From NCBI GenBank assembly GCA_964447495.1, contig CAYUTF010000001.1, positions 64,870 through 128,869 of the forward strand: a stretch of DNA of 64,000 nucleotides, given 5' to 3'. Position numbers and translations under genes: made by a program. The stretch is from an uncultured archaeon. Its GTDB lineage: Archaea; Asgardarchaeota; Lokiarchaeia; Sigyniarchaeales; SOKP01. Below are positions 1,164 to 62,307 of the stretch, one piece after another; position 1 is the stretch's first letter, and each line of letters begins with the position of its first letter. The notes below the pieces were generated by a model. The model was given only the letters and a program-made list of their open reading frames with translations, made no database searches and had not been told where the DNA came from.

Positions 1164-1178
1164 CTAAAGGTGTTATAA

Positions 1179-19643: not shown

Positions 19644-19669
19644 ACTCTTATCTCCCTCCTATATTATTC

Positions 19670-20692
19670 CTATAAACCTTCTCCTTTTAATTTTTCAATT
19701 AGTTCCTTCTGTTTTCGATTTAATTTTTTCGGAACTTGAATTTTAATCTTAACTAATTGATTACCTCTCTCCTCAGAATTTAACTTATAAAAACCTTTAT
19801 TTTTTAATCGTAAAATAGTGGAATCTTTCGTTCCAGGAGGAACAGTTACACTGCTTGATTTTTCTATTCCAGGTACTTGTACTTTCCCTCCAAGTACCGC
19901 TGTTGTAAAAGGAATTTCTTGTTCTAAAAAGATATCATCCTCATCTCTTTTAAAAATGTCATGACCAGATACATGAAGTATGATATATAAATCACCAGGT
20001 TCTCCACCATTATGGCCAGGTATTCCTTTTCCTTTTAATCGTAATTTTTGATCGTCTCTAACTCCTCTTGGAATAGTGACAGTAAGAGTTTTATTTTCTC
20101 CCGTAAGAGGGTCTTTATATTGAACTCTCTTTTTTCCTCCATTAAAGGCGTCCATAAAACTTATTTCCATATCATAACGTAAATCTTCTCCCTCACGGGG
20201 ATAATTCTGAGTTCCAGAAGGTCTTGCTCTAGTACTGCCTCCATAATTAGAAAATACATCAAAAATATCTCCTAGATCATTAAAAAAGTCATAATTGGCA
20301 GTTCTTTTACCTCGCTTTTTGTTTGAGCCAAAAATCTCACTAAAATCAAATCCTCCAGGACCTCCTGAAGTTGAATAATAATATGTCGATCCATCAGGAC
20401 TTTGATATACCTGTTGTCCTTCTGGATTATTAGCGTACTGTTGATAATTGAATTGCTCTCCATCTACAACTCCAAATTTATCATACATTTCTCGCTTCTT
20501 ATCATCACTTAAAACACTATATGCTTCATTAATTTCCTTAAACTTTTCACCCGATTTTGCCTCATCAGGATTTACATCTGGATGATACTTACGAGCCAAT
20601 TTACGGAAAGCTCTCTTAATTTCCTCTTTTGTTGCACTTTTATCTATTTCTAAAACACTATAATAATCTTTTGGCATTATATACAACCCCAT
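19670..20692 (-). CDS. dnaJ: J-domain co-chaperone, class II (CbpA/DnaJB-like, no zinc finger)
   Basis: J-domain with the HPD motif (KYHPDVNPD), a G/F-rich segment ([13 protein letters not shown]) and two C-terminal beta domains. The 340-aa product contains no cysteine, so CxxCxGxG repeats are absent. The start may be the MPKDYY Met at 20677. Confidence 0.85.
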
Positions 20693-20740
20693 AACAAATT
20701 TTACTAAATTTTAAAAAAAATATTATAAAAATAAAAAAAT

Positions 20741-22639
20741 TTATTCATAATCTGCATCTACTACATTATCATCTTGACCTGTGGCTTTTCGAAATTGCTC
20801 TTCTTCGATTTCATCTTTTGATTTACCTTGATTTCCATGGTTCGCTCCAGGTGGTGCTCCACCCATCCCTCCGGGAGGTGGTCCTTGACTTCCTTGTTGT
20901 TGTCCGTACATTCTTGAAGATACTTCATGTAGTGACTTCTGTAAAGCCTCACTTGTGGATTTAATTCGTTTTACGTCTTCAGCTTCAACGGCACTTCGTA
21001 ATTCAGAAATCTTTTCTAGAATTCTCGATTTCAAATCTCCAATCACTGATTCATTATCTTTTAATAATTTCTCTGTTTGATAAATCAATGCTTCTGCTTG
21101 ATTTTTCGCTTCAGTTAATTCTTTGAATTTTCTATCATCTTCAGCATGTCTCTCGGCTTCACGTACTTTTTGTTCAATATCATCTTCAGACATTTTCGTT
21201 GATGCAGTTATCGTGATTGATTGCATTTTTCCTGTACCTTTATCTTGTGCTGATACGTTAAGTATTCCATTTTGATCAATATCAAAAGTGACCTCAATCT
21301 GAGGAACGCCTCGAGGTGCGGGAGGGATTCCCGTTAAATGAAATTTACCTAAAGTAATATTATCTAAGGCTTTTGGTCGCTCTCCTTGTAATACATGAAT
21401 CTCAACGGCGGGTTGATTGTCTGCTGCTGTAGAGAATGTCTCTTTCTTCTTCGTTGGAATCGTTGTGTTTCTATCGATTAATTTGGTAAACACTCCACCT
21501 AAAGTCTCAACTCCTAAGGATAATGGCGTAACATCGAGTAATAGTAAATCTTCGACTTCACCAGTTAGTACTCCTCCTTGAACTGCGGCGCCAATTGCTA
21601 CACATTCCATTGGATCAATGCTTCGCTCGGGTTTTCTGCCTAAAAATGATTCAAACTTATCTTGAACACTGGGCATTCGAGTAGGACCTCCGACTAAAAT
21701 TACTTTATCGACTTCACCCTTCTGAAGACCTGCATCTCTTAATGCTTTAATAATAGGTGCTTCCAAGCGCGTTATAACCGGATCGATTAATTGTTCTAAT
21801 TTTGCTCTCGTAAGGTTCATGTTTAGATGTTTCGCACCTGTATTTGTAGCTGTAATATAAGGTAAGTTGAGATCAGTTGTAATTGAAGTAGACAACTCAA
21901 TTTTAGCTCGTTCTGCTGCTTCTTGTATTCGTTGCATTGCCATCGAATCACTTCGCAAATCAACACCTTCAGTTTTTTTGAATTCATCAACAATGTAATC
22001 TACAAGAATTTTATCCATATCAGTACCGCCTAACTGTGTGTCTCCTGCGGTAGAGATAACTTCAAAAATTTGATTATCCATCTCCATAATTGTAACATCA
22101 AATGTACCTCCACCTAAATCCAATACGGCTATTTTCATATGCGCATCTTTCTTATCTAATCCATAAGCTATTGCTGCGGCAGTGGGCTCGTTAATTAAAC
22201 GTTTAACATCTAATCCCGCGATCCTTCCCGCATCTTTGGTAGCTTGTCTCTGATTATCATTGAAATATGCCGGTACGGTAATTATCGCTTCTGTAACCTC
22301 TTCTCCTAAGTACGCACTCGCATCTTCCCTGATTTTACGTAATATCATTGCTGAAATCTCCTGAGGTGTGTAATCCTTACCGTCAATGGTCACTTTATAT
22401 GAAGTCCCCATCTTTCGTTTAATTGCGGTAATTGTTCTGTCAGGATTGGAAATCGCTTGTCTTCGAGCTGGCTCACCAACAAGTCTCTGCCCGTCCTTTG
22501 TAAAGGCTACTACTGAAGGAAAGGCTTTCCCACCTAATGTGCTTCCCTCAGCACTCGGTATAATCGTTGGTTTTCCACCAATTAATACAGCTGCTGCTGA
22601 ATTTGAAGTTCCAAGGTCAATTCCTATGATTTTACTCAT
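20741..22639 (-). CDS. dnaK: Hsp70 chaperone DnaK
   Basis: 632 aa. Hsp70 signatures [19 protein letters not shown] and [11 protein letters not shown], with a bacterial-type C-terminus ending ...[10 protein letters not shown]. Confidence 0.97.
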
Positions 22640-22733
22640 ACTTTTTCACTCCTTTTTTATTTTTTATTTTTTAATTTTTTATTTAATTATTTATTCAATT
22701 TTTTGTTTTGATTTTTTATTTTAAATTTCATTT

Positions 22734-23414
22734 TTAAATTACATCTTTAATTTTTGATACTTTCACCCTTGCGGGTTTCAATACCTTGTTATTTAAATAA
22801 TAACCTTTATCAATTTCTTCTAAAATAGTATTTTCTGGAAGATCATTATTCTCTTCTACCAAAATCGCATCATGCTTATACGGATCAAATTTTTCCCCTT
22901 TACAATTCATCGGTTTAACCCCTTCCTCTTCAAGAATCTTCTCGAAATTGCTAATGATCATTTTGAATCCTTTTTGTATTGACTCATCACTATTATTGAC
23001 TTCTAAGATTTTTAAAGCTCGCAATAAATCTTCATAATGATTTATTAGCTTTTTAACGATTTTTTCCTTAAGTATCGTGTCATAGTGCTCTTTATCACGC
23101 TGAACTGATTTTTTATAATTTTCAAAATCCGCTTGCGTTCTCACCAGTGAATTTAAGTACTTGTCCGTCTTCTCCTTTAACTCTTTTAGCCGCCGACCGT
23201 CGTCTTTTAAATCGTTAAGCTCCTTATGAAGCGCTGTTTTTTCAGCTTGGGCTTGATCTAACTTTTTTGCTAAAATTTCGTAATTGGTTGCTATATCCTT
23301 TAGTCTCTTGTATTCTTGCCTTGATATAGCCACCTTATTATTAGGATCTTCCAATGCTTTCCTTTGGTTAAAAAAATCTCCATAAAAGTCTTCAAACACC
23401 ATATTTTTTACCAT
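22734..23414 (-). CDS. grpE: Nucleotide exchange factor GrpE
   Basis: 226 aa. N-terminal coiled coil, then GrpE core motifs (RTQADFENYKK ... FDPYKHDAI ... GYYLNNKVLKPARVKV). Confidence 0.9.
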   Translation of the reverse strand: MVKNMVFEDFYGDFFNQRKALEDPNNKVAISRQEYKRLKDIATNYEILAKKLDQAQAEKTALHKELNDLKDDGRRLKELKEKTDKYLNSLVRTQADFENYKKSVQRDKEHYDTILKEKIVKKLINHYEDLLRALKILEVNNSDESIQKGFKMIISNFEKILEEEGVKPMNCKGEKFDPYKHDAILVEENNDLPENTILEEIDKGYYLNNKVLKPARVKVSKIKDVI

Positions 23415-23643: not shown

Positions 23644-25029
23644 ATGCCGAAACCAAGTCCAGAAGAGATAATTAATGGGCTAAAGCGGGGGGATTTAGCA
23701 AAAAGCGATGCCATTGCACTCTTGATCTCCTATATAAAAAACAGTGAAAAGAAGGAAGAGCGAGTCAAAAGTATTGAGCTTTTAAACCAATTAGAGATGG
23801 AAGATGAAGGTTTATTTGATACATTTGAAGAATTGGCAGTATCTGATTCGGATTATGAAATAAGCGCTCTTTCCGCTGAGATAATAATAAAGAGCTATTT
23901 TGAAAGGGGTTTAAAATCGATTAAATGGATTTTAGAGCACTTTAGTTCGCCATATCAGCTTGCGAAGGTGTTGCGTTCACTTCTGAGGTACAAACCAGAC
24001 TTTTTACGGACATTTTTACTAGAGGAGCTGGATAATATTGTTTTAGGGTATATCAAACAGTTTCACCATTTACATAAATCGTTTATCAACGGTCTAATTG
24101 CCGATTACAAAGAAATTTTTAAAAATAGGGAAATATCGGAGTTTTCGACTGAGCATTTAATGGACATACTCATTAACTTTCAAACTGTGGTATTTATTGA
24201 TGTATATTATGAAATTTGGGGCACTCTTGTGGTTTATTTCAAGGACGGGTACGTAGTCGAGTTTGAGATGGAATTTCCTCCCGAAGATATAAAAAAGATT
24301 GGCGATTTCGAAGGAATCTTTAATTTTGAAAGATTAGAGCGAATCTCATTAACATATACGTCTCTTGAAGATCTTGAAGGGATTGAGAAGTTTACTAAGC
24401 TTATACATTTGGGTATTAGACAAAGTGAGCTAAAGGAGATGAAGCATGTTAATAAATTAAAAAATTTAGAGATTTTGGCTTTAATGGGCAGTAAATTGAC
24501 AGAAATAGCTGGATCAGAGGGTTTGCAGAAGTTAAACGAGTTGCACTTAGAGTCGAATGCGATCAGAGAAATTAAGAATTTAGATTCTCTAAAAAATTTG
24601 GAGTTTCTTGCCTTAAATTTTAATAAGATTCAAGAAATTAAGGGTTTGGAAAATTTAACTAATATTAGAACTATATATTTGGCTGGGAATAAGATTACTA
24701 AAATAAGTGGATTGGAGACTTTAACAAATTTAGAAGATTTGGATCTTGCAGAAAATAGGGTAAAAAAGATAGAGGGCCTTGAAGGATTAACAAAATTAGA
24801 AAGGTTAGATTTAGATATGAATGAGATCGAGATTTTAGAAAACATAGCGCAGTTGGAAGCTTTGGAGTCTTTAACTCTAAGCAATAATAGGATTTCGCAG
24901 ATTAAGGGATTGGAAAAGAGAATTAACCACATCGTTATATTTTTAGAGGGAAATCCACTTTCAGAGAATGTAATTAAGTATGTGCAAGAATTCACAAATA
25001 AAAAAAAAAAGATAGTAATTAAATTTTAA
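23644..25029 (+). CDS. Leucine-rich repeat protein (SDS22/internalin-type 22-residue LRRs) with N-terminal HEAT-like helical region
   Basis: 461 aa. Nine consecutive 22-aa repeats of pattern LxxLxLxxNxIxxIxGLExLxx from residue about 231. Confidence 0.85.
   Translation: MPKPSPEEIINGLKRGDLAKSDAIALLISYIKNSEKKEERVKSIELLNQLEMEDEGLFDTFEELAVSDSDYEISALSAEIIIKSYFERGLKSIKWILEHFSSPYQLAKVLRSLLRYKPDFLRTFLLEELDNIVLGYIKQFHHLHKSFINGLIADYKEIFKNREISEFSTEHLMDILINFQTVVFIDVYYEIWGTLVVYFKDGYVVEFEMEFPPEDIKKIGDFEGIFNFERLERISLTYTSLEDLEGIEKFTKLIHLGIRQSELKEMKHVNKLKNLEILALMGSKLTEIAGSEGLQKLNELHLESNAIREIKNLDSLKNLEFLALNFNKIQEIKGLENLTNIRTIYLAGNKITKISGLETLTNLEDLDLAENRVKKIEGLEGLTKLERLDLDMNEIEILENIAQLEALESLTLSNNRISQIKGLEKRINHIVIFLEGNPLSENVIKYVQEFTNKKKKIVIKF
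24334..24927 (+). repeat. 9 x 66-bp in-frame coding tandem repeat (LRR units)
   Basis: Repeat units read from the translation, e.g. LEFLALNFNKIQEIKGLENLTN, IRTIYLAGNKITKISGLETLTN and LEDLDLAENRVKKIEGLEGLTK. Confidence 0.8.
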
Positions 25030-39146: not shown

Positions 39147-39962
39147 TTAAGATTTTGAAAAGCCGCCATGGTGAAATTCAATCTTATAACTTAAATCATA
39201 TTCTTCGCAATAATCCTTAATATCTGCTTCTATTAAATCCCACCTTGACCGATCAATTCTCAATTCTTTATAAATTGGCAATAAATCGGGAAAATGTTTC
39301 CTAATTATGTTTAATATTCGAGGAATATTATGAGGACGAAAATTCAGATTTTCAAACATATAATCTTTTGTATATGCCATTGATTCTTGTATTATGTCTC
39401 TGAAATTAGTAATTCCTGGAAAAAAGGGAGATATGAAAATATAGGACCTTATTCTATGTTCGTATAATTGTTTTATTGCATTCAATCTTTCATGAGGTCT
39501 TGAAGCGCCAGGTTCTAATAATTTAGCGACATCTTTGTTTAGTGTACTAATGGATATGCCTACTTCAATATTTTCAAATTGCTTAAATAGATCAATGTCT
39601 CTGACAACGAATTTTGACTTTGTGAGAATGGTTATTTGAGCTTTTGTCCCAACAAGACTTTCCAGAATCCTTCTAGTATTTTGATATTTTAATTCTAAAG
39701 GAACATAAGGATCAGTTACAGAGCTAAGCAATATCTTTTTCCCATTATATTTACTAGGTTTAATCTTGTTTAGGTCGAATTTCTTGACATCTAAAAAGGT
39801 TCCCCATTTATCACCTTTATGATTGGTGAACCGAATCATAAATTCAGCATAACAATAAATACACCCATGCTGGCACCCAACATACGGGTTTATAACATAA
39901 TCTATATCTGGAATATTACTTTGAACTATTAAGCTTTTAGCTTCTCTAGATTCAACTTTCAT
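39147..39962 (-). CDS. Radical SAM protein (COG1533 / SplB-like family)
   Basis: 271 aa. NPYVGCQHGCIYCYA carries the CxxxCxxC cluster motif in the context typical of the spore-photoproduct-lyase-like family. Confidence 0.82.
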   Translation of the reverse strand: MKVESREAKSLIVQSNIPDIDYVINPYVGCQHGCIYCYAEFMIRFTNHKGDKWGTFLDVKKFDLNKIKPSKYNGKKILLSSVTDPYVPLELKYQNTRRILESLVGTKAQITILTKSKFVVRDIDLFKQFENIEVGISISTLNKDVAKLLEPGASRPHERLNAIKQLYEHRIRSYIFISPFFPGITNFRDIIQESMAYTKDYMFENLNFRPHNIPRILNIIRKHFPDLLPIYKELRIDRSRWDLIEADIKDYCEEYDLSYKIEFHHGGFSKS

Positions 39963-39993: not shown

Positions 39994-41451
39994 TTAACTA
40001 TCTTTATTTAAAGAGATTTTTTTTATATTTTTAGATTCATGTTCATTGTCAGCTATCAGAGATTCTCTTCCACGTTCTATATAATAAAATTCAGATATTT
40101 CCGGATTAAATTTTTCTTTTAAAATTTTCATAACATTTAACCCCTTTGCATACTCGTCGCATACAAAAATATCAATGCTGATATATCCATGTTCTGGCCA
40201 TGTATGGATAGCTGCATGACTTGATTTCAATATAGCTATAGCTGTATATCCGTATGGATGAAAATTATATTTAAATATATCAAGGATAACTATTCCAGAA
40301 GAAAATAGAGCGGTGAGGAATATTTTATGAATCTCTTCATTTTCTAACAGTATTTTTTGGTTTTTAAAACGCATTTCCCCTACAAAATGATGTCCTATTG
40401 GACGAAATGGTAAATTAATCCCTTGTTTTAATTCAGAAGTATAAATTGGACGAGCCTCTAAACTTAATTTACTCTCGTTCTCATGGACTTCTGCTAAGGT
40501 TAGATAATAAAGATCACTAAATTGCCCTAAAATACTTGCTCCTTCATAATGATTGAAATCAGGAATCAATTCTTTAATTACAAATCCATGATCCAATATG
40601 GATAATTGAATCTTTTGCTTATCTTTCGGAGGTTTATTTCCGAAACAAAGAATACACCGTTTCCCTATTAAAGTATAATCTCTATTTTCAATTTTAATTG
40701 ATGTTTTCAAAGCTTGCTTAGCTCTTTTAAGAAATAGTCGTAACCCTTGGTTTGTGTACGGAGGATCCATAATAACAATATCATATTTATTGAGAAGGTC
40801 ATTAGGAAGAGGTTCTCGTAAATCATGCTGTACAAAATTAATATTGTTTATAGAATTCAAATTTGAAATGTCTGCTAAATAATCTAATACTGCTTTATCT
40901 ACATCAATTACCGTAATTTCATCTGCTAATTCGGTTAAACCCACTAAAATGGAAGTAGCATCGTCATCGCCTAAAAAGATAAGTTTTCTTCCTTCAATCT
41001 CACCCTTTTTCACAAGATATAAGGTTCGATTTATAACAGAAGGAATATCAGCGTGTGCTTGATCAAAAGAATAATTCGGATCTGGTCTTTTTTCTAGGTA
41101 ATTATCACTAAATTTAAGAAAATAGAGTTTCTTAGGGAGATCTTCAAGTGAAGTTGTTAAATCCTTAGGAAGAGGATCAAAATTAAAATAAAGATTCACG
41201 TTTTCCTTTACCCAATTTTCCCCTTCTTGACCGAGTCTATTTCGCTTTTCAATAATCCCTGCTTTTACTAATTCTGATCTGACAGCAGCAAGTGCAGGAA
41301 TCGCAATTCCTGTTTTTTGGGCTAATTTTTTATTCTTAAGAGTTGGAAAGCGATACATATAGAGAAGAATTGATCGTAATCCTTCCATTCCTTCAGCTAA
41401 TTGGGCTTTTTCTGCAATTAGAGTAAGTAATTTTTCCGTTTCTATTTGCAT
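39994..41451 (-). CDS. Fusion protein: BpsA-like (DUF43) aminopropyltransferase + pyruvoyl-type S-adenosylmethionine decarboxylase (SpeH-like)
   Basis: 485 aa. N-terminal wHTH-like region, then DUF43/BpsA motifs GRKLIFLGDDDATS, VIDVD, HDLREPLP and IVIMDPPYT. The C-terminal roughly 115 aa match SpeH (HFVGEM...HPYGYTAIAILKSSHAAIHTWPEHGYISIDIFVCD). Confidence 0.8.
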   Translation of the reverse strand: MQIETEKLLTLIAEKAQLAEGMEGLRSILLYMYRFPTLKNKKLAQKTGIAIPALAAVRSELVKAGIIEKRNRLGQEGENWVKENVNLYFNFDPLPKDLTTSLEDLPKKLYFLKFSDNYLEKRPDPNYSFDQAHADIPSVINRTLYLVKKGEIEGRKLIFLGDDDATSILVGLTELADEITVIDVDKAVLDYLADISNLNSINNINFVQHDLREPLPNDLLNKYDIVIMDPPYTNQGLRLFLKRAKQALKTSIKIENRDYTLIGKRCILCFGNKPPKDKQKIQLSILDHGFVIKELIPDFNHYEGASILGQFSDLYYLTLAEVHENESKLSLEARPIYTSELKQGINLPFRPIGHHFVGEMRFKNQKILLENEEIHKIFLTALFSSGIVILDIFKYNFHPYGYTAIAILKSSHAAIHTWPEHGYISIDIFVCDEYAKGLNVMKILKEKFNPEISEFYYIERGRESLIADNEHESKNIKKISLNKDS

Positions 41452-41985: not shown

Positions 41986-44226
41986 ATGGAGAAAGTTAGG
42001 ATGATTAGGTTTACAAAACCCTATCTCATAATGATTTTTATATCTATCGGGTTGTTATTTGCTCAAGCAAATTTCGACCTCACATTACCAGACTATCTTT
42101 CTAAGATCGTGAATGTGGGCATTCAACAAGGGGGCGTGGAAGATGCAGTCCCAGAAGCAATCCGGGAAATAGAAATGAACAGAACCTTAATGTGGCTTAC
42201 TCCTGAAAATCAAACGGACGTGCTCAGTGCTTATACATTGGTGCATAATGGAAGTTCAGAAGCTAGCTTGTATGTCGAAAAGTATCCTGCCTTGCTTAAC
42301 CAGTCAGTCTATGTATTGACTAACTCGGAGAGCGCGACAAACACGAATTTAAATCCGATTATGGCTAGAGCACTTTTAATCGTGTCTTTCGTTGAATTAT
42401 TAATGATGAATGACACATTACGAATGCTTGTAAATGCGCAATTAGGACTTTCTCTCCCAGGCAACGGTACAGATTTGTTTGAATATATTAAAACACAACC
42501 TCCTTTGACATTATTACTGATTATGACTGTTGCCAACTCAAGATTTAGTGCACTTGGGGAAAAAATGATTATTCAAGCTGCGACACAAGTTGTTAGAGAG
42601 GAATATAAGGCACTTGGTATGGACATAAACCAATTGCAACTAAACTACATGTTTTACTATGGAGGATTGATGATCCTCTTAACTCTACTCTCAATGGCTT
42701 GTATGATTGCAGTAGGTTACTTGGCAGCAAAGGTTGCTACTGGAATGGCCCGTGATATGCGCCGGGATATATTCAAGAAGGTCGAACAATTTTCGAGCAC
42801 TGAGTTTGACAGTTTTTCAACGGCATCTTTGATCACACGCTCGACGAATGATATAACACAAGTTCAGATGGCGGTAATAATGATTATTCGTCTTGTGTTT
42901 TATGCCCCAATTTTGGGAATCGGTGGGATCATTCATGCTCTTGATTTAGCTCCAACGATGTGGTGGATAATTGCAATGGCAGTGGGCATATTGCTTAGCT
43001 TAATACTTATGGTCTTTTATGTAGCTTTGCCCAAGTTTAAGAGTATCCAGAAGCTGGTGGATCGTCTCAATCTAGTGGCCCGTGAGGGCTTGACAGGGAT
43101 AATGGTGATAAGAGCGTTTAATAAACAGCAATTTGAAGAGATCCGGTTCGATAAGGCTAACATCGATCTCACCAAGGTATCCTTATTTATCAATCGTGTT
43201 ATGGTAATTATGATGCCCGTGATGATGATGTTGATGAATGTTCTCGTGATCATAATCATATGGGTCGGATCGCACGAGGTAGCTAATGCAAATCTCCAAG
43301 TTGGTGATATGATCGCCTTTATGCAATATGCTATGCAAGTGACTATGGCCTTCCTCATGTTGTCAATAATGTTCATTATTTTACCGCGTGCTTCCGTATC
43401 TGTAAATCGTATTGCTGAGGTCCTAAAAGTTGATATTCTAATCCGTGATCCCGAGAATCCAAAACATTTTGATGAACCATTTAGAGGAAAAGTCGAATTC
43501 CGGAATGTTTCTTTCCGCTATACTGGTGCATTAGAGGATGTCCTACATGATATTTCATTTACCGCCCATTCAGGACAAGTCACGGCTTTTATTGGACCTA
43601 CTGGCTCTGGTAAATCTACACTTGTAAACTTGATACCACGTCTTTATGATGTCGTAACGGGAGAAATTTTAATCGATGATGTTGATATACGTGAAGTAAG
43701 CCAGCACGAATTACGTGATAAAATTGGTTATGTGCCACAGAAGAGTGCGTTATTCTCTGGGACTATCGCGAGTAATCTTCTTTTTGCGAATGAAAACGCG
43801 AGCGAGGTCGACCTTAAATCTGCGATACAAACCGCCCAAATTACCGAGTTCGTGAATGGTAAAACCGAAGGGATGGCTACTGAGATTGCCCAAGGCGGGA
43901 TGAATGTGTCTGGAGGTCAAAAACAGCGACTCTCAATCGCTCGAGCCTTAGTTAAAAAAGCTCCAATTAATATTTTAGATGATAGCTTTTCCAATTTAGA
44001 CTTTAAAACCGATGTTGCTTTGCGTAAAGCCCTCCGAGCATCCCTCTCAGTGAGTACAGTGCTTATAGTTACACAAAGAGTTTCCACTATTAAAAATGCA
44101 GACCAAATAATTGTTCTCAACGAGGGTAGAATTGTCGGGAAGGGAACACATGTTGAACTGATGGAAAATTGTGCTATATATAAGGATATAGCAATGTCAC
44201 AACTTAGTTTGGAGGAATTATTATGA
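41986..44226 (+). CDS. ABC exporter half-transporter (TMD-NBD), subunit with non-canonical Walker B and a large extracytoplasmic insert
   Basis: 746 aa. 6-TM type I exporter fold. Walker A GPTGSGKST, signature VSGGQKQR and Walker B INILDDS, with Asp in place of the catalytic Glu. An insert of about 165 aa lies between TM1 and TM2. Confidence 0.9.
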   Translation: MEKVRMIRFTKPYLIMIFISIGLLFAQANFDLTLPDYLSKIVNVGIQQGGVEDAVPEAIREIEMNRTLMWLTPENQTDVLSAYTLVHNGSSEASLYVEKYPALLNQSVYVLTNSESATNTNLNPIMARALLIVSFVELLMMNDTLRMLVNAQLGLSLPGNGTDLFEYIKTQPPLTLLLIMTVANSRFSALGEKMIIQAATQVVREEYKALGMDINQLQLNYMFYYGGLMILLTLLSMACMIAVGYLAAKVATGMARDMRRDIFKKVEQFSSTEFDSFSTASLITRSTNDITQVQMAVIMIIRLVFYAPILGIGGIIHALDLAPTMWWIIAMAVGILLSLILMVFYVALPKFKSIQKLVDRLNLVAREGLTGIMVIRAFNKQQFEEIRFDKANIDLTKVSLFINRVMVIMMPVMMMLMNVLVIIIIWVGSHEVANANLQVGDMIAFMQYAMQVTMAFLMLSIMFIILPRASVSVNRIAEVLKVDILIRDPENPKHFDEPFRGKVEFRNVSFRYTGALEDVLHDISFTAHSGQVTAFIGPTGSGKSTLVNLIPRLYDVVTGEILIDDVDIREVSQHELRDKIGYVPQKSALFSGTIASNLLFANENASEVDLKSAIQTAQITEFVNGKTEGMATEIAQGGMNVSGGQKQRLSIARALVKKAPINILDDSFSNLDFKTDVALRKALRASLSVSTVLIVTQRVSTIKNADQIIVLNEGRIVGKGTHVELMENCAIYKDIAMSQLSLEELL

Positions 44227-46070
44227 TGCAACGACCTGGAGGTCCAATGAGAGGGCGTGGTCCGATGGGAGCAACGGGTGTTGCTCGTGAAAAGGCTACC
44301 AACTTTCGTGGGACGATGGGTAAACTATTCCGTTATATGGGTAGGTATAAAGGGTTAGTATTGCTGGTCTTCATATTTGCTGCAGCATCTACAACTGCAA
44401 ACATTATCGGTCCAAAGATTCTCGGAACTGCCACAACAACTCTTGTTACTGGCGTGATAGCCCAAATTAGTGGTACAGGCGTAATTGATTTTGCTAGTAT
44501 TGGCGTAATTTTACTTGAAGTACTAGCAATATACGTTATCTCAGCAATTTTTGGCTTTATACAAGGCTGGATTATGGCGGGTGTTTCAACTAATATTGCT
44601 TATCGATTCCGTCGGGATATTGCGGAAAAGATCGACCACTTACCACTTAAATATTTTGATGGGACTACTTACGGAGAAGTACTTTCTCGTATTACAAATG
44701 ATGTCGACACAATCAACCAGTCATTAAGCCAAAGTCTCACGCAGATTATTACATCAGTAGTAACAATCGTGGGAGTCTTGATCATGATGCTTAGTATAAG
44801 TTGGGTCATGACATTGGTAGCGCTTGCGATGCTTCCATTGTCATTATTACTAATGGGTGTAGTTATTGGTCGCTCACAGAAGTACTTTAAACAACAACAA
44901 GATAATTTAGGGCATGTCAACGGTCATGTCGAAGAAATGTATGGTGGTCATATTGTGATAAAGGCATTCAACGGGGAAGAAAAAAGCGTTGAAAAATTCA
45001 ACAAATTTAATAAAAATTGGTATACAGGCTCTTGGAAAGCAAATTTCTTCTCAGGATTGATGATACCAATCATGTTATTCATTGGAAATTTGGGATATGT
45101 GGCTGTTACAATTTTCGGCGCATGGTTGGCAATTCAAAACGTAATTACAATAGGGGATATTCAAGCATTCATTCAGTATGTCCGCTCGTTCACCCAACCT
45201 CTCAGCCAAATTGCTAATATTTCCAATGTTCTTCAGCAAACAGCTGCTGCTGCTGAACGCGTATTTAAATTTCTTGAAGAAGAGGAAGAGACTCCCGATG
45301 TAACTAACCCTATTAAGCTAGAACGCGTCAAAGGATTAGTGGAATTCCGAAACGTGCATTTTGGATATGATCCTAATAAGATTATCATCCAAAACTTCTC
45401 CGCTATAGCCCAACCTGGTCAAAAGGTTGCGATAGTTGGACCAACAGGAGCAGGAAAAACCACTATTGTCAAACTACTTATGCGTTTCTACGATCTGAAT
45501 AGCGGAACAATTTTAGTAGATGGTCATGACACTCGAGATTTCACACGAGCAGATCTTCGCCGTATGTTTGGAATGGTGTTGCAAGATACTTGGCTTTATA
45601 ATGATTCCATAATGAATAATATTAGATATAGCAATCAAGATGCAACTGACGAGGAAGTGCTTGCGGCTGCAAGTATTGCCCACGTTGACCCTTTCGTCAA
45701 AATGTTACCCGATGGATATAATATGGTGATCAATGAGGAAATAACAAATGTCTCTCAGGGTCAAATGCAGTTATTAACGATTGCCCGTGCCATCCTTGCG
45801 AATCCACCAATACTGATCCTTGATGAAGCTACCAGTTCCGTCGATACGCATACGGAGATCTTGATACAAGAAGCCATGGATGCACTAATGCAGAATAGAA
45901 CTAGTTTCGTTATAGCTCATCGTTTATCCACTATTCGTAATGCAGATCTGATCCTCGTAATGCGGGATGGAGACATTGTAGAGCAAGGCAACCATAATGA
46001 GTTGCTAGCACGGGGTGGTTACTACGCTGAGTTATACAATAGTCAATTTGAAAAGTTGAATAATGACTAA
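44223..46070 (+). CDS. ABC exporter half-transporter (TMD-NBD), partner subunit with degenerate signature motif
   Basis: 615 aa. ATGA start/stop overlap with the upstream gene. Walker A GPTGAGKTT, canonical Walker B ILILDEATS and signature VSQGQMQ instead of LSGGQ. Confidence 0.9.
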   Translation: MMQRPGGPMRGRGPMGATGVAREKATNFRGTMGKLFRYMGRYKGLVLLVFIFAAASTTANIIGPKILGTATTTLVTGVIAQISGTGVIDFASIGVILLEVLAIYVISAIFGFIQGWIMAGVSTNIAYRFRRDIAEKIDHLPLKYFDGTTYGEVLSRITNDVDTINQSLSQSLTQIITSVVTIVGVLIMMLSISWVMTLVALAMLPLSLLLMGVVIGRSQKYFKQQQDNLGHVNGHVEEMYGGHIVIKAFNGEEKSVEKFNKFNKNWYTGSWKANFFSGLMIPIMLFIGNLGYVAVTIFGAWLAIQNVITIGDIQAFIQYVRSFTQPLSQIANISNVLQQTAAAAERVFKFLEEEEETPDVTNPIKLERVKGLVEFRNVHFGYDPNKIIIQNFSAIAQPGQKVAIVGPTGAGKTTIVKLLMRFYDLNSGTILVDGHDTRDFTRADLRRMFGMVLQDTWLYNDSIMNNIRYSNQDATDEEVLAAASIAHVDPFVKMLPDGYNMVINEEITNVSQGQMQLLTIARAILANPPILILDEATSSVDTHTEILIQEAMDALMQNRTSFVIAHRLSTIRNADLILVMRDGDIVEQGNHNELLARGGYYAELYNSQFEKLNND

Positions 46071-56511: not shown

Positions 56512-59500
56512 TTAATATTTTAATTCTACCCAATTTTCTAGTTCAAGATAGAGTTTTTTCAAATTGTTAATTTGATTATCATCTGCATCCCAGTAGCCTC
56601 TATTATTCGCTTGAAGCATATTTTTAATTATATCCATCATTGCAAAACGGTTATTCTCTTCTAACTTTTCTCTCAATTCTTCATTATGAATATATTGATC
56701 ATAAGCTTTGTCCCAAATCCAGTTATCTACTTTATGTGTTGTAGCAGATAAGCCAAGAAGATTCTCTACGCGTTCAGCTATTTTTTGACCACCATGATAT
56801 TTATGTTCGAGTAGACTCTTGATCCATTTAGGATTTAAAGAACGTGTAATTGCCCCTTCTCTGATACTTTCTTGTAGTGTGTTTACTTTTATCTCTTTAC
56901 TAGAAGAATCTGCAATATATATATTTGCCTCCTTTCCACTTATTTCTTTATAGGTACGCGCTAGTCCACCAGTAAATTCATAATAGTGGTCTAAATCTGT
57001 TATTGAATATTCACTAGAATCCCGAATTTGGCTCATAATTTCAATTTCATTTATATTTTGGGAAAAATTCTCTACTAATTGCTTTACTTTTTGGTTTTTC
57101 ATATAAGCAAAACTCATATTTCTAAGATAATCCTTTGCTAATTCATTCTCCTCATCCCACTTTCCAGCAGATATAATCTCTGTTAAATTTGTATTATATT
57201 TCCCGGGAGGTGGTCCAAATACACGTGCATCAGCATTCTCTAATCCTTTATTTTTCAATGTTAAAATTGATTTTTTCACATAGTTATGTTCAAGACTTTC
57301 ATCTAAATCTGCTACTAATTCAATTGCTTTATTAATTAATTCTAAATGATAAGGAAATGTATCCCGAAAGATTCCACATATAGTAATTATAACATTGATT
57401 CTAGGATGGGTCATTTCTTCTAATGGTATAACCTCTAACTCAGTAGTCCAAATAGATTTATTTTTAACAGGTTTAACTCCTAAATAATTAAAAATTTGAC
57501 CAATAGTTTCTCCTCCAGTTTTCATAGTTTCAAACGCCCATAGAACTACGCTTACTGTCTCGGGCCAGCTATTGTGACTATTCTTATATTCTTGGATTAA
57601 CTTTTCTGCGATTAGATCTCCACGTTTTAGTGCGGTAGAATTAGGGATAAGTCGGGGATCAAACCCATAGGAATTTTTCCCTGTTGGATAAATATGTGGA
57701 GAACGGATAGGATCTCCTCCTAATCCGGGTTCAATATAACCCCCTTCTAATGCATGGATAAGATTGTCTAATTCTAAAGTTTCATCGATTTTATTTGTTA
57801 AATCTTGTATCCAGAAAGTAACAAGTTCAATTAAACCATCGGCAATATCATAAAGGGTTATTAAATTTTGATTAATATCTCCTAATGGAGTTTTCAAGGA
57901 ATATAGTTCATAGTAATCTTTCAAAAAGCTTTCTAGTTTTTCCATATTTATAGATCCATTATCTATCCTAAAATAGAATAAAAAATCCTCTATATATGAA
58001 GGTTTTTCTGAAGAGTGAATTATGATATTTTTTATAAGATTCAGTTTTTGTTGAAGTGTGTATTGAATTCCTAAAGTATGTAAGCCCATAGGTATTATGC
58101 TTTCTTTGTATCGATAGAGTTTATCTTCTAATTCTGAAATAGTATTATAATCAAGATTCATGGAATTAGCTAATTCTCTAACTTCTTGGGTCAAATCATT
58201 GATTCTTGTATCTTTTTGATCGGGTAATAAATAAGAGTCTGAAGAAGGAACAATCTTCTGAAATTCCGATATTAATTCTTCTAATTTATCGAATTCATCG
58301 TATAATCCTGACTCTTGGAAGGTAGGTCCTGCATGGTTTATAATCAATGCGTTACCTCTTCTCTTTGCTATAGCAGACTCACTTGTGTTTGTTATATGGT
58401 AATAATATATATTTGGGAGTGACCCCAGTAACTTTAAATTATAATCATCAATCCAACCAGCACATTCTTTCCCAGGGAGAAATTCCTCAGTTCCATGTGT
58501 ACCCACATGGACTAATGCATCTATTTTTAAAATCTTTTCAAGATAATAATAGAAAGCCAAATATTGATGATGAGGTGGTAAATTCTTATTATGATATTCA
58601 TTACTATCACCTGCCACTTTACTTCTTGATGGCTGAACGCAGAGATATACATTGCCAAATTGAATTATAGGTAATTTAATATGCGAGTTAATCGTCATTA
58701 TATCTCCCGGTGGTTTACCCCAATATTGAATAATCTCGCTTTGTTTTTCTAAAGAAAAAGTTTTAAAGAATTGATTATAGAGTTGAAGATCTAATTTTAT
58801 CCCTTTATAATCCTTAATATCAGTATATTTTGGTAGATTTACTATACCAAAATTTATAAATAAATCCATTAAGTTGCTATCATTCGAAAAATCTTCTATA
58901 TGATATCCTTCGTCAATCATTTTTGTTATGAGTTTCTTTATGGATTCTGAAACATCCAAATATGCTGCATTTCCGATTTTATCTTCCCCTGGAGGGTAAT
59001 TATACACAATTATCGCTATTTTTTTATCCCCATTTTTTTTTAGTCTTAGTGCCAACCACTTTTTAATTCTTAGGCAATAGGCTGCTAAATTTTCTTTTAA
59101 TGGCTTTACTTCTAAAATATTAGAGTTAACTTGATCTGAAAATCCTAAATCTTCAAGCAATCCTACAGTTGTCATCTCCAATCTGCCGTCTAATTCAGGC
59201 ATAACAATTGCTATTAACTGATTAATTGGTATAATTCCTTCCTTTGATTTGGAGTATTCTTCAAAAGACATATCATACTGAATAATTGGATTAAATTGAG
59301 GTACGTCCATTTTTTTAAATAAATTTAAAGTTTTCGAACTATCTCCGCCAAAAGGTCCACCATTTAATTGAAAATACTGAAGGTTAATGATAGCACTAAC
59401 TAAATTTTTTCCGTCTTGGAAGAATAAAGTTTCATAAGCTTCCACGTTGGTTAATACATCAGAAAAAACGGGAAGAATATTAAATTCTGAAAGATTATCG

Positions 59501-60321
59501 ATAAATTGCTCAACAATGGGGAGAGATTGTTCAAAATATAAACCACCGTAGTAAAAAATTCCTATGGTTTGTTTGGTAGGGTTAAATTTTTTCTTTTGAA
59601 AATACTCTTCAGAAGATTGAAAGTATTCATTTAATAATGGATCAAAGATCCCATATGGAGGAATTTTTTTTGGTTTCTCAACTTGAATACTTTTATGCCC
59701 AAGATAGTTTTTTAAAAGGAAAAGAAGCATATTTTTATGATTAGCGGCAATACCACCTAATCCATGTACCCAATAATCCATCATCATAACCCAGGATCGG
59801 GCATGTTTAAGTGTTTTTACCGGAAATACTTTACCTAAGAATTTCAAGAAATTGGTCATTCTCTGACCAAATCTTACAGCATTAGTTAAATCAGGGACTT
59901 CATCAATGGAATATCCTTTAGTGCTTGGAGATGGAATTTTGCGTGCTTGAAATGACCCCATTTTAGTTAGTCCTCTTATCTCACTATTTCCACCTACAAG
60001 AGCGATGATTTGGATTCTTTCAAATAAATCAGGAGTTTCTTCTTCAATTGTTTTGTATGTGTTTACCAAAACTTCGACTGTGGGGGTATTTCCACGAATA
60101 TCAAGGAGCATAATATTCGATTTATAGATGATATTAATTAATTCCTTCTCTGATATCCTTCCTGAGTCTAGATCTTTAAGAAAATAGATTTTAAACTCAA
60201 AAATCTTGCCTAATTGTCTATAAATATCATCAATTGCCTCGGTTAGCCATTTTAAAAAAACAGAAGCTGTAATTAAGGTTATTTGGGGCAACGTTTTTGA
60301 TTTAATATCACTAGCACTCAT
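56512..60321 (-). CDS. cobN: CobN/ChlH-family chelatase large subunit
   Basis: 1269 aa. CobN-family length and blocks such as NHAGPTF, HVGTHGTEEFLPGKE and GGYIEPGLGGDPIR. Confidence 0.88.
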   Translation of the reverse strand: MSASDIKSKTLPQITLITASVFLKWLTEAIDDIYRQLGKIFEFKIYFLKDLDSGRISEKELINIIYKSNIMLLDIRGNTPTVEVLVNTYKTIEEETPDLFERIQIIALVGGNSEIRGLTKMGSFQARKIPSPSTKGYSIDEVPDLTNAVRFGQRMTNFLKFLGKVFPVKTLKHARSWVMMMDYWVHGLGGIAANHKNMLLFLLKNYLGHKSIQVEKPKKIPPYGIFDPLLNEYFQSSEEYFQKKKFNPTKQTIGIFYYGGLYFEQSLPIVEQFIDNLSEFNILPVFSDVLTNVEAYETLFFQDGKNLVSAIINLQYFQLNGGPFGGDSSKTLNLFKKMDVPQFNPIIQYDMSFEEYSKSKEGIIPINQLIAIVMPELDGRLEMTTVGLLEDLGFSDQVNSNILEVKPLKENLAAYCLRIKKWLALRLKKNGDKKIAIIVYNYPPGEDKIGNAAYLDVSESIKKLITKMIDEGYHIEDFSNDSNLMDLFINFGIVNLPKYTDIKDYKGIKLDLQLYNQFFKTFSLEKQSEIIQYWGKPPGDIMTINSHIKLPIIQFGNVYLCVQPSRSKVAGDSNEYHNKNLPPHHQYLAFYYYLEKILKIDALVHVGTHGTEEFLPGKECAGWIDDYNLKLLGSLPNIYYYHITNTSESAIAKRRGNALIINHAGPTFQESGLYDEFDKLEELISEFQKIVPSSDSYLLPDQKDTRINDLTQEVRELANSMNLDYNTISELEDKLYRYKESIIPMGLHTLGIQYTLQQKLNLIKNIIIHSSEKPSYIEDFLFYFRIDNGSINMEKLESFLKDYYELYSLKTPLGDINQNLITLYDIADGLIELVTFWIQDLTNKIDETLELDNLIHALEGGYIEPGLGGDPIRSPHIYPTGKNSYGFDPRLIPNSTALKRGDLIAEKLIQEYKNSHNSWPETVSVVLWAFETMKTGGETIGQIFNYLGVKPVKNKSIWTTELEVIPLEEMTHPRINVIITICGIFRDTFPYHLELINKAIELVADLDESLEHNYVKKSILTLKNKGLENADARVFGPPPGKYNTNLTEIISAGKWDEENELAKDYLRNMSFAYMKNQKVKQLVENFSQNINEIEIMSQIRDSSEYSITDLDHYYEFTGGLARTYKEISGKEANIYIADSSSKEIKVNTLQESIREGAITRSLNPKWIKSLLEHKYHGGQKIAERVENLLGLSATTHKVDNWIWDKAYDQYIHNEELREKLEENNRFAMMDIIKNMLQANNRGYWDADDNQINNLKKLYLELENWVELKY

Positions 60322-60330
60322 AATTATTAT

Positions 60331-62307
60331 TCATGTTTTTGTATTCATAATTCCTTCATTTGCTAATATTCTGCTCACACTTTCTTTATTCATGCTATCG
60401 ATATGATAATATAATGCATTTGATGACTCTGCAAGCTTTTTATTCATTTCTAGTTTTATATCCGTAGTTTCAGTATCAATAATTATCATATCTATCTTAT
60501 TTTTTTTAATTTCTTTTCCAATATTTAGTATATCATCGATTGGATCCTTAAAAAAGACATTTCCCCGCGCATCAGTTATAAGTGTAATCATTGGGATATA
60601 TCCAGTATTCTTTCGTTTCTCTTCGAGAGCAATATTTAAAGCTTTACTCAAACCTGTTACTAAAGGCGTTGTACCACCTGTTGGGATTTCCTTTAATAAT
60701 TTATAAGCTAAATCAGTACTTTTAGTGGGAGGCAAGATAATTTCGGCAGTTTCTCCTCGAAAAACTACTAATGAGACCTTATCTCTATAGACATAATTAG
60801 ATTGAAGGAGTGAAAAAATTACGCCTTTAACTGTTTCCATCCTTTCATTTGCACCCATTGAACCTGAAGCATCTACACAAAAGATAATCAAATAACTTGA
60901 TTTTCCGCTTCTATTTTTAATATGGATATGGTCATCTTTTACCTTTATTTTTCCACCATTTTTAATAATTTCTTTATTTTCAGATTCTAATGCCGCAGCA
61001 TTAATGGTCTGAAGAACGGCAATATCTGTTGATGTTTTAAAATTGAAATTTTTTGGCTTCTGTCCACTAATATATTTACCCTTTTTATCTTGAGTGGGAT
61101 GTAATAATCGTTGACCAGAAGTGTTCATATTCTTTTTAATTCTTTTTTTTTCCAATACATCATCTGTTCTTATGCTTCGATTAATTCCAAATACTCTTTC
61201 TTTAATATTTATGATTTCCTTTTCATCTCCTTCATCAGAATCATACTGTATATTAGTTTCTTCCTCGATTTTTAGTTGTTCATCAAAAAATTTATCAATC
61301 TCATCTTCATTTATTGTATTTTCCTCAAAGGGAAGTTTTCTTAAGCGGTGAGCTAAAGCCAATTTAGTAGCAATTTTAATATCTTCATCCCATACTGTAA
61401 TCCTCCCATTAAAAGCGGCAATAGTTTTTGCTGTTAAATTAATTGTAATATCTGCTCTATGACTGTCAATATCTAATTGAACTGATAGTTGAGCAATCCT
61501 TTTTAATTGTTCTTCAGTAATTTGAACCTTATCCAAGATTTTACGAGCATTTATAATTCTAGAGCTCAATTCTTTTTGGCTATTCTCAAACTTATCATAA
61601 AATTCATGAGGATCGTTATGATACTGCTCTGCATATTTAATAATCTGGACTCGTTTATCTATATTTAAAATAGGTTTTGCTTCCATGCTTAATCCAAACC
61701 TGTCTAAAAGTTGAGGCCGTAAATTTCCCTCTTCTGGATTCATTGTTCCTACTAAGATAAAATTAGATGGGTGATGGACACTAATTCCCTCCCGTTCAAT
61801 AATATTTATCCCCATCGCAGCACTATCTAGTAAAACATCTGCTACATTATCAGCTAGGAGATTTACTTCATCTATATAAAGAATATTTCTATTTGCCTCA
61901 GCTAAAATTCCTGGTTCTAATGCCTTCAAGCCTTCTTCTAAAGCTTTCTTGATATCAATTGTTCCGACGACTCTATCCTCAGTAGCATTTATGGGTAAAT
62001 TAATAACACGCATTTTTCGCTTTTCTATATCATTATCAGTTAATTTATTGTCAATTATTTTATGTTGACAAGAATGACATGACTCCTTAAGATTGTGAGG
62101 GTTGCAATTGAAAGGACAATCCTTAATTATTTCAATTTCGGGGAGTAGATCAGCTAGTGCTCTAACAGCAGTTGATTTCGCAGTTCCTTTTGTTCCCTTA
62201 ATTAGAACGCCACCAATTTTTGGATTAATTGCGTTTAAAATCAATGCAAGTTTCATAAGGTTTTGTTCTACTATAGCAGTAAAAGGGTAGGCTTTAAAAT
62301 GTGTCAT
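60331..62307 (-). CDS. Chelatase ATPase subunit, ChlI-type AAA+ fused to ChlD-type vWA domain
   Basis: 658 aa. Walker [10 protein letters not shown], Walker [10 protein letters not shown] and GTMNPEEG. The C-terminal vWA domain has [14 protein letters not shown] Cys-rich insert ([19 protein letters not shown]) follows the LLPEIE segment. Confidence 0.88.

Follow-up and report, generated by a model that had tools for sequence, protein, structure and literature searches.

A one-gene fusion of a BpsA-family transferase domain and a pyruvoyl-type AdoMet decarboxylase domain in Asgard archaea and several bacteria

Here, we describe a gene from a 64-kb stretch of DNA of an uncultured Asgard archaeon (Lokiarchaeia; Sigyniarchaeales; contig CAYUTF010000001.1 of assembly GCA_964447495.1), called the window below, to whose first letter all positions refer. 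The gene lies at 39994..41451 on the minus strand, runs from an ATG start to a TAA stop and encodes a protein of 485 amino acids (aa) with three parts: a winged-helix N-domain, a domain of the PF01861 (BpsA) family, and a complete class 1b pyruvoyl-dependent S-adenosylmethionine (AdoMet) decarboxylase domain. The fusion is real, widespread and far beyond chance or assembly error. On balance, we think it probable that the protein is a self-processing bifunctional enzyme, which would make decarboxylated AdoMet (dcAdoMet) and use it for aminopropyl transfer, with a product that is probably not N4-bis(aminopropyl)spermidine. A first-pass annotation had read the gene as a BpsA-like aminopropyltransferase joined to an AdoMet decarboxylase; the observation of the fusion is confirmed, and its interpretation is partly supported. 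The parts of the gene are the following.

39994..41451, minus strand: the whole gene, a predicted three-domain proenzyme of 485 aa (list of open reading frames (ORFs), sequence, Pfam, NCBIfam, and an identical protein on an independent Logan contig).
41167..41451, minus strand: N-terminal helical/winged-helix domain, residues 1-95, counterpart of the BpsA N-domain (weak HTH_24/MarR matches, 5xnc/2qm3, structure model).
40492..41100, minus strand: PF01861 (BpsA-family) Rossmann-fold aminopropyltransferase-like domain, residues 118-320 (PF01861, 5xnc, Foldseek).
40405..40491, minus strand: flexible linker, residues 321-349, which tethers the decarboxylase domain (predicted local distance difference test score (pLDDT) <50, conserved motif, family alignment).
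40057..40404, minus strand: class 1b pyruvoyl-dependent SpeD/SpeH domain, residues 350-465 (PF02675, TIGR03330, 1tlu/1vr7/2iii).

The hidden Markov model (HMM) searches proposed with the first-pass annotation were run, and both families match far above the Pfam gathering scores: PF01861 (BpsA_C) at residues 118-310 with 140.7 bits (gathering cut-off 27; E 6.3e-41), and PF02675 (AdoMet_dc) at residues 355-461 with 85.7 bits (cut-off 25; E 3.5e-24), covering model positions 1-107 of 107. By sequence, the N-terminal two thirds match Thermococcus kodakarensis (Tk) BpsA (5xnc; 2.3e-32 using the family profile) and a Pyrococcus furiosus homologue (2qm3), and the last third matches the SpeD proteins of Thermotoga maritima and Aquifex (1tlu and 1vr7, both at ~1e-17, and 2iii). 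An AlphaFold (AF2) model with a mean pLDDT of 76.8 and a predicted template-modelling score (pTM) of 0.65 contains a disordered linker at residues 323-349 (pLDDT <50). A Foldseek search with this model ranks BpsA structures best (5xnc, E 3e-17, ~349 columns), followed by N-methyltransferases of the DPPY type (METTL5, PH1948) and then SpeD 1tlu, on whose alpha-beta sandwich model residues ~350-460 superpose with a TM score of 0.85 and a root-mean-square deviation of 1.8 A. HMMs, PDB matches and fold thus agree on a one-gene fusion of a BpsA-family (PF01861) domain and a small pyruvoyl SpeD/SpeH-type decarboxylase.

The N-domain gives weak winged-helix matches in Pfam (HTH_24/MarR, residues 26-70), the model places helices across residues 3-84, and from residue ~70 onwards the family profile aligns with the N-domain of 5xnc/2qm3. 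In the orthologue alignment, this winged helix-turn-helix (wHTH) region is the most conserved part of the protein, above either catalytic domain, with a mean column identity of 85% and 28 of 70 columns invariant (e.g. LKNKK..QKTGIAIPALAAVR.ELVKAGIIEKRN). It may act in oligomerisation, nucleic-acid binding or regulation. The transferase reaches 77-79% and the SpeD domain 74-80%, whereas the linkers stand at ~54% and the C-terminal tail at 29%, which argues that all three domains are maintained by selection.

A sequencing frameshift joining two genes had been named in advance as a possible refutation of the fusion. No frameshift was found: a single frame spans the domain junction, which holds no homopolymer, and the gene is an uninterrupted single ORF in 63 species genomes, including two closed chromosomes (one genome per GTDB species was scanned). 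We reject a frameshift or assembly artefact on the strength of these 63 genomes, at least 120 full-length relatives, invariant catalytic residues, and an identical protein on an independently assembled contig (Logan).

Among 5.8 billion proteins, 270 match as relatives at E <= 1e-5. The best 120 of these are all full length (471-489 aa) with both Pfam domains present, and are named from metagenome-assembled genomes (MAGs) of Promethearchaeota/Lokiarchaeota and Hodarchaeota; one of them comes from the original Loki's Castle sediment metagenome. Among relatives, the length of the linker is conserved. All 63 carrier genomes are Asgard, except for one 6-kb contig binned as Nanopelagicaceae. That contig (L065, DATKTW010000089.1, labelled Candidatus Nanopelagicaceae bacterium) holds a fragment of an Asgard-type fusion gene with 64% identity, and was most likely misassigned to an actinobacterial MAG when the public assembly was binned. 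The relatives come from marine sediment and cold-seep MAGs (the latter by isolate labels), so the host is probably no thermophile, in keeping with the earlier remark that this AT-rich archaeon is probably a mesophile.

The architecture extends beyond Asgard archaea. An exhaustive HMMER search over 1.84 billion 50%-identity representatives, with the whole fusion as query so that SpeD-only matches are counted, gave 5,205 matches at E <= 1e-3 and 1,022 at E <= 1e-10. Among the best 150 clusters, 31 combine PF01861 with a C-terminal SpeD domain, and nearly all of the 150 carry the DPPYT motif. Named carriers among the best clusters are, in archaea, Odinarchaeota, Heimdallarchaeota and Hodarchaeales, and in bacteria, Vagococcus fluvialis, Erysipelothrix, Lachnospiraceae, Xenorhabdus spp., candidate division WWE3/Patescibacteria (candidate phyla radiation, CPR) and Thermoflexus hugenholtzii. 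Several PF01861 clades that differ in sequence share the architecture, namely those of Asgard, Bacillota, Xenorhabdus, CPR and Thermoflexus. For the number of independent fusion events, Fitch parsimony gives 15 changes, a number we distrust, as it comes from a crude neighbour-joining (NJ) tree without support values and a set that includes fragments.

The decarboxylase half carries the active site of its family, located as follows.

40219..40224, minus strand: S410 and S411, between which autocatalytic cleavage is predicted; S411 would be the pyruvoyl precursor, as S63 in T. maritima (1tlu alignment, invariance).
40159..40206, minus strand: H416 to C431 (HTWPE...C, including P419), equivalent to T. 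maritima H68 and C83 (alignment; roles from PMC10407285).

The domain passes TIGR03330, the NCBIfam equivalog for Bacillus-type adenosylmethionine decarboxylase, with 88.6 bits against a cut-off of 75.65. Its motifs lie at residues 398-402 (HPYGY), 410-412 (SSH), 415-423 (IHTWPEHGY) and 426-431 (IDIFVC), and its central region is near the AdoMet decarboxylase (AdoMetDC) consensus (FxPxG...SH..IHTWPE...D.F.C). Aligned to T. maritima SpeD (1tlu), S411 corresponds to S63, H416 to H68, C431 to C83, E359 to E11 and P419 to P71. PMC10407285 describes S63 (the pyruvoyl precursor), H68 and C83 as essential for SpeD processing and catalysis; it also describes a central-region proline that is fully conserved in bona fide AdoMetDC and not in SpeD-derived arginine decarboxylases. 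S411, H416 and C431 are invariant in 27/27 orthologues and E359 is invariant too; so are, in the 27 orthologues, both conserved central-region prolines, P399 (FxPxG) and P419 (HTWPE), one of which is the proline meant in that paper. With the catalytic residues intact and both PF02675 and TIGR03330 passed, the earlier assignment of the C-terminal part as a SpeD/SpeH-type decarboxylase domain holds.

A degenerate paralogue of the fusion protein is found in Promethearchaeota (P0126, 478 aa; loci L068, 4666-6102, and L069, 3859-5295). It has the same three-domain build, with GDAD in place of GDDD and DPPFT in place of DPPYT, and retains none of Ser, His and Cys in its SpeD part ('DQGLISLQAWPE'). 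It is possibly a pseudoenzyme or regulatory subunit, and recalls the dead AdoMetDC-like domains of animal spermine synthase and the trypanosomatid prozyme.

The transferase half is a member of the BpsA family that differs from BpsA at the acceptor side. Four sites matter here.

40960..40971, minus strand: GDDD, G161-D164, equivalent to G157-D160 of Tk-BpsA, where it holds the aminopropyl amine of dcAdoMet in position (invariant 27/27; 5xnc chain residues 177-180).
40753..40767, minus strand: DPPYT, D229-T233, in which D229 is equivalent to Tk-BpsA D225 and Tyr takes the place of the Glu of DPPET (invariance, 5xnc alignment, clade table).
40627..40635, minus strand: K273-P274-P275, invariant, at the position of Tk-BpsA E259, the acceptor-activating residue (alignment via P0133 to 5xnc, 6j27).
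40432..40449, minus strand: P-I-Y-T-S-E, residues 335-340 in the linker (I336, Y337 and T338 invariant).

In BpsA, D159 and D160 of the GDDD motif position the aminopropyl group of dcAdoMet, D225, E259, Y290 and Y316 belong to the acceptor site, and a flexible C-terminal acidic cluster (Tk E339 and D342-E345; DEE in Thermus thermophilus, Tth) carries the aminopropyl group in a ping-pong mechanism (PMC12979288, a 2026 review on branched-chain polyamines). These positions are in Tk numbering, to which 20 is added for the 5xnc chain. The fusion protein keeps GDDD (D159/D160), D225 (as D229) and Y290 (as Y302, in FNHY). Other features are replaced: E259 (in Tk 'RRESS', in Tth 'HVEAS') by the invariant K273-P274-P275, Y-x-N-W-G-Y by Y-E-G-A-S-I, and DPPET (Tk) or DPVEG (Tth) by DPPYT. 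At the position of the acidic carrier cluster stands P-I-Y-T-S-E with one conserved acidic residue, where the Thermoflexus fusion has ELYEDED; phmmer alignments to Tk-BpsA end at chain residue 319 and leave Y316 unaligned, and the register of this acidic tail comes via the Thermoflexus homologue only. By the same family alignment, in which PIYTSE meets the ELYEDED of this true-BpsA-type protein, the linker 321-349 appears to be the counterpart of the flexible acidic lid of BpsA. The motifs quoted in the first-pass annotation are all present (GDDD at 161-164, VIDVD at 181-185, DLREPLP at 210-216, DPPYT at 229-233); DPPYT is, given the Tk and Tth sequences, no hallmark of BpsA and marks a different, much larger clade. 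The family assignment made in that annotation is right.

The same picture emerges across the family. In a table of 140 representatives, DPPYT, [KR]-x-P, FNxYxGA and IYTxE occur in nearly all, fused or not, and the Thermoflexus fusion is the only one with true BpsA motifs (DPTET, ITRIES, YANWE, ELYEDED). In an NJ tree built from distances between catalytic domains, which is crude and carries no support values, Tk- and Tth-BpsA fall with the Thermoflexus protein (P0204), and the window protein with the other Asgard fusions. Judged by these motifs, the transferase half is part of a large uncharacterised 'DPPYT / [KR]-x-P / I-Y-T-x-E' clade of PF01861, and not BpsA proper; the clade occurs mostly in mesophiles. 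The DPPY of the fusion protein is the classical motif IV of amino-methyltransferases, and weak matches to N6-adenine methyltransferases, RsmD, HemK and METTL5 are found, so the domain retains the motif that presents a nitrogen nucleophile to the sulfonium.

From these parts, we propose the following mode of action. The SpeD domain would cleave itself between S410 and S411, converting S411 into the pyruvoyl cofactor. The predicted chains are 46.9 kDa and 8.8 kDa, and the mature enzyme would consist of the former as beta chain (wHTH, transferase and the first half of the SpeD sandwich), held non-covalently to the latter as pyruvoyl alpha chain. The SpeD domain would then decarboxylate AdoMet to dcAdoMet, and the PF01861 domain, to judge from its sequence and from the fusion itself, would bind dcAdoMet through GDDD and transfer the aminopropyl group to an amine acceptor. 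A flexible, lid-like linker of ~30 residues would join the two, at the position of the aminopropyl-carrier tail of BpsA. That dcAdoMet is the donor of the DPPYT clade is suggested by a Rosetta-stone argument, since the SpeD fusion recurs in several distinct PF01861 clades. Donor synthesis and donor use would be expressed 1:1 from a lone gene, in the absence of a polyamine operon, and this stoichiometric coupling follows from the structure of the gene. Substrate channelling, which the first-pass annotation had envisaged, is plausible and only a possibility, unsupported because the inter-domain geometry of the model is unreliable. Since the transferase belongs to the DPPYT clade and not to BpsA proper, the product is most likely a polyamine other than the N4-bis(aminopropyl)spermidine of thermophiles, such as a linear tri- or tetra-amine derived from a di- or triamine that the cell imports or makes by a separate route.

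Several observations weigh against this bifunctional enzyme. The AF2 model leaves the relative placement of the domains unreliable (pTM 0.65, linker pLDDT <50); the acceptor pocket is unlike that of BpsA at E259 and NWGY, and the acidic carrier lid is absent, so the ping-pong chemistry of BpsA may not apply; and the DPPYT clade has no characterised member. In addition, the Loki family has Ser or Thr at -1 of the cleavage site, where the canonical dipeptide is Glu-Ser; Glu-Ser-His is kept in the fusions of Odin, Heimdall, Hod and bacteria, and x-Ser-Asn stands in the CPR group. The class 1a AdoMetDC of Escherichia coli cleaves at Lys-Ser. Ser or Thr at -1 is not known to block processing, and a Glu there is probably not essential.

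Among the alternatives, the most obvious is a true BpsA orthologue, which in a mesophile would turn spermidine into the branched penta-amine N4-bis(aminopropyl)spermidine, as the first-pass annotation implied for the transferase half. The best PDB matches by sequence and fold are indeed Tk- and Tth-BpsA, the equivalents of GDDD, D225 and Y290 are retained, UniRef and NCBI label relatives 'bis-aminopropyl spermidine synthase family', and a true-BpsA-type domain fused to SpeD does exist in Thermoflexus. However, the exchange of E259 for KPP, of NWGY for GASI and of the acidic carrier cluster for PIYTSE, a PF01861 match limited to positions 9-191 of the 243-position model, and the failure to cluster with Tk- and Tth-BpsA in the domain tree all speak against it, and bpsA orthologues and branched polyamines have been reported from thermophiles only (PMC12979288). 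BpsA-like N4 branching of spermidine, in particular, is hard to square with a protein that has lost E259 and the acidic lid and gained an invariant Lys. We consider this orthologue unlikely, and the branched-polyamine reading implied in the first-pass annotation is not supported. Somewhat less likely again is that the aminopropyl acceptor of the PF01861 domain is not a free polyamine but, for instance, a small metabolite or a nucleic-acid or protein amine recruited by the winged-helix domain. METTL5 and PH1948 as the next-best structural matches after BpsA, the DPPY motif IV (a signature of N-methyltransferases acting on adenine N6, rRNA and the glutamine amide), the wHTH as the most conserved region, and the invariant Lys in place of the acidic, acceptor-binding Glu would all fit such a target. 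Yet characterised BpsA, whose substrates are free polyamines, has a wHTH-like N-domain as well, the acetyltransferases found beside or fused to two relatives (described below) resemble polyamine acetylation, and we know of no dcAdoMet-dependent aminopropylation of macromolecules. That the DPPY clade as a whole, marked as dcAdoMet-dependent by its recurrent SpeD fusion, modifies nucleic-acid, protein or other non-polyamine amines through winged-helix recruitment instead of making a free polyamine seems a long shot; if true, Asgard archaea, CPR bacteria and some Bacillota would share a modification chemistry that depends on dcAdoMet and is new.

The SpeD-like domain could also supply the acceptor and not the donor, if neofunctionalisation had turned it into a pyruvoyl decarboxylase of L-arginine or L-ornithine (SpeDA/SpeDC) that yields agmatine or putrescine. 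Such neofunctionalisation is widespread in bacteria and archaea, with arginine versions that are hard to separate by sequence, according to PMC10407285, and Ser/Thr at -1 of the cleavage site betrays some divergence of the lineage. Against this stand the pass of the AdoMetDC equivalog TIGR03330 above its curated cut-off, the near-consensus central region with both prolines invariant, one of which is diagnostic of bona fide AdoMetDC in that same paper, the invariant E359, and the experimental precedent for a transferase fused to the maker of its own donor; we regard a switched decarboxylase as very improbable. Finally, a joined gene pair or an inactive relic has next to no probability: nothing was found in its favour beyond the existence of the degenerate paralogue P0126 elsewhere, and the uninterrupted ORF in 63 species genomes and at least 120 relatives, the invariant catalytic residues and the independent identical assembly all contradict it. 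The self-processing enzyme that makes and uses dcAdoMet therefore remains our preferred reading.

The surroundings of the fusion gene agree with a self-sufficient unit. In a Pfam scan of 50 ORFs across the window, there is no SpeE/spermidine synthase, agmatinase, PdaD, deoxyhypusine synthase or second AdoMet_dc, and by eye, without a Pfam scan, none of the ten recurrent neighbour families listed is polyamine-like; the fusion gene hence looks self-sufficient. Rfam gave 0 matches at gathering thresholds within the 64 kb, and thus no riboswitch upstream of the gene. When ORFs are clustered across 65 oriented loci, a partly conserved block recurs upstream (PadR, BtrH_N/DUF4872, DUF3795, a methyltransferase and a UvrA-like ATPase), and the downstream genes are variable unknowns. 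No conserved polyamine operon around the gene was found in these loci. In the window, an ABC exporter pair at 41986-46070 on the plus strand (746 and 615 aa, each ABC_membrane plus ABC_tran; 40.5% GC against ~30% around it) separates the fusion gene from the upstream block that is adjacent in other genomes. This pair occurs in only 3 of 63 related loci (L034, L052, L060) with ~80% protein identity, against 57-60% for the fusion protein there, and has the look of an insert that moves laterally, or of an insertion hotspot. On the other side, 31 bp downstream and on the same minus strand, lies a gene for a radical S-adenosylmethionine (radical-SAM) protein (39147-39962, 271 aa, weak DUF5131 match). 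None of the 63 other genomes has a homologue of it in the 10 kb on either side of the fusion gene; this adjacency is therefore specific to the window genome and probably reflects no functional linkage.

Elsewhere, the company of the fusion gene differs. In Vagococcus fluvialis (CP122523.1), a GNAT acetyltransferase gene (locus L066, 11362-11796) lies 24 bp downstream of it, and one homologue (P0129, 549 aa) carries, according to its JGI name, a fused RimI-like acetylase domain. These may point to acetylation of a polyamine product; acetylation of branched polyamines has been reported in T. kodakarensis. The Xenorhabdus fusion gene stands alone, near a resolvase and an MFS transporter.

Other genes of the window include a GrpE-DnaK-DnaJ-ClpB chaperone cluster (17031-23414, minus strand), with a GC content of 33-36% slightly above the window background of ~30%, adjoined by a TFIIB gene (16136-17062) and a gene for a leucine-rich repeat (LRR) protein (23644-25029). 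Three consecutive replication-factor-C-like AAA+ genes occupy 189-3590 on the plus strand. A 611-aa ORF (9874-11709, minus strand) has an internal HNH_3 endonuclease motif as its sole Pfam match, and a CobN/Mg-chelatase gene (1269 aa) sits beside a ChlI/VWA subunit gene at 56512-62307 on the minus strand.

If the proposed function holds, it has consequences for several questions. The fusion would assign dcAdoMet as donor to a very large uncharacterised PF01861 clade, and the abundance of mesophiles in that clade qualifies the statement that bpsA orthologues are confined to thermophiles (PMC12979288). The fusion is conserved in Loki-, Odin-, Heimdall- and Hodarchaeia; should it be the main aminopropyl pathway there, eukaryotic SpeE and class 2 AdoMetDC would not have come from the archaeal host. 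This would bear on an open point raised in PMC10407285. The cultured carriers Vagococcus fluvialis, Erysipelothrix, Xenorhabdus and Thermoflexus make the function directly testable.

Databases already name relatives of the protein 'adenosylmethionine decarboxylase' or 'bis-aminopropyl spermidine synthase family'. Full-text literature searches, which do not cover subscription journals, turned up no paper that describes or tests a BpsA/PF01861-AdoMetDC fusion or its bacterial homologues, and none on polyamine synthesis in Asgard archaea. Among known systems, BpsA (EC 2.5.1.128; T. kodakarensis TK1691, 5xnc/5xnf; T. thermophilus, 6j27) shares with the fusion protein the PF01861 family, a wHTH-like N-domain followed by a Rossmann domain, GDDD, the Asp of the DPP motif (D225), the Tyr of FNxY (Y290) and a flexible segment after the catalytic domain. 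The fusion protein is ~21-22% identical to it in structural alignment, and close relatives are 33-38% identical over a core of ~140-180 residues. It differs in having a whole SpeD domain after PIYTSE, in its tree clade, and in its sediment Asgard host as opposed to a thermophile. For the other half, T. maritima SpeD (TM0655, 1tlu/1vr7) matches over the full length of the domain with 31-32% identity, and Aquifex 2iii with 24%; the TM scores of the SpeD structures are 0.83-0.86. S63, H68, C83, E11 and HTWPE of class 1b SpeD/SpeH (B. subtilis type, TIGR03330) are all conserved. Whereas class 1b SpeD is a free-standing protein of ~130 aa, here it is the C-terminal domain of 485 aa, its beta chain would carry the whole transferase, and the usual Glu at -1 is Ser/Thr in the family of the fusion protein.

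The closest parallel in logic are the bacterial fusions of AdoMetDC with SpeE-type transferases (AdoMetDC-SpdSyn/SpmSyn), for which both activities have been shown experimentally and which are the ancestors of animal spermine synthase (PMC12803844). They likewise unite a class 1b AdoMetDC and a consumer of dcAdoMet in one polypeptide. Their transferase is of the SpeE family and their AdoMetDC is N-terminal, whereas the window protein has an N-terminal PF01861 transferase, no Spermine_synth/spermidine-synthase family match in Pfam, and a C-terminal decarboxylase. Because the transferase family differs and the domain order is reversed, PF01861-SpeD is an independent, convergent fusion: a second way to join an AdoMet decarboxylase to an aminopropyltransferase, with the BpsA family, in the opposite order, and with a transferase that would stay on the decarboxylase beta chain after self-cleavage. 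The same PF01861 plus SpeD architecture is found in the 507-aa fusion of the thermophile Thermoflexus hugenholtzii (P0204/P0329), whose transferase, unlike that of the window protein, carries true-BpsA motifs and clusters with Tk- and Tth-BpsA. The Thermoflexus protein would be a natural positive control for making a branched polyamine from AdoMet in one protein.

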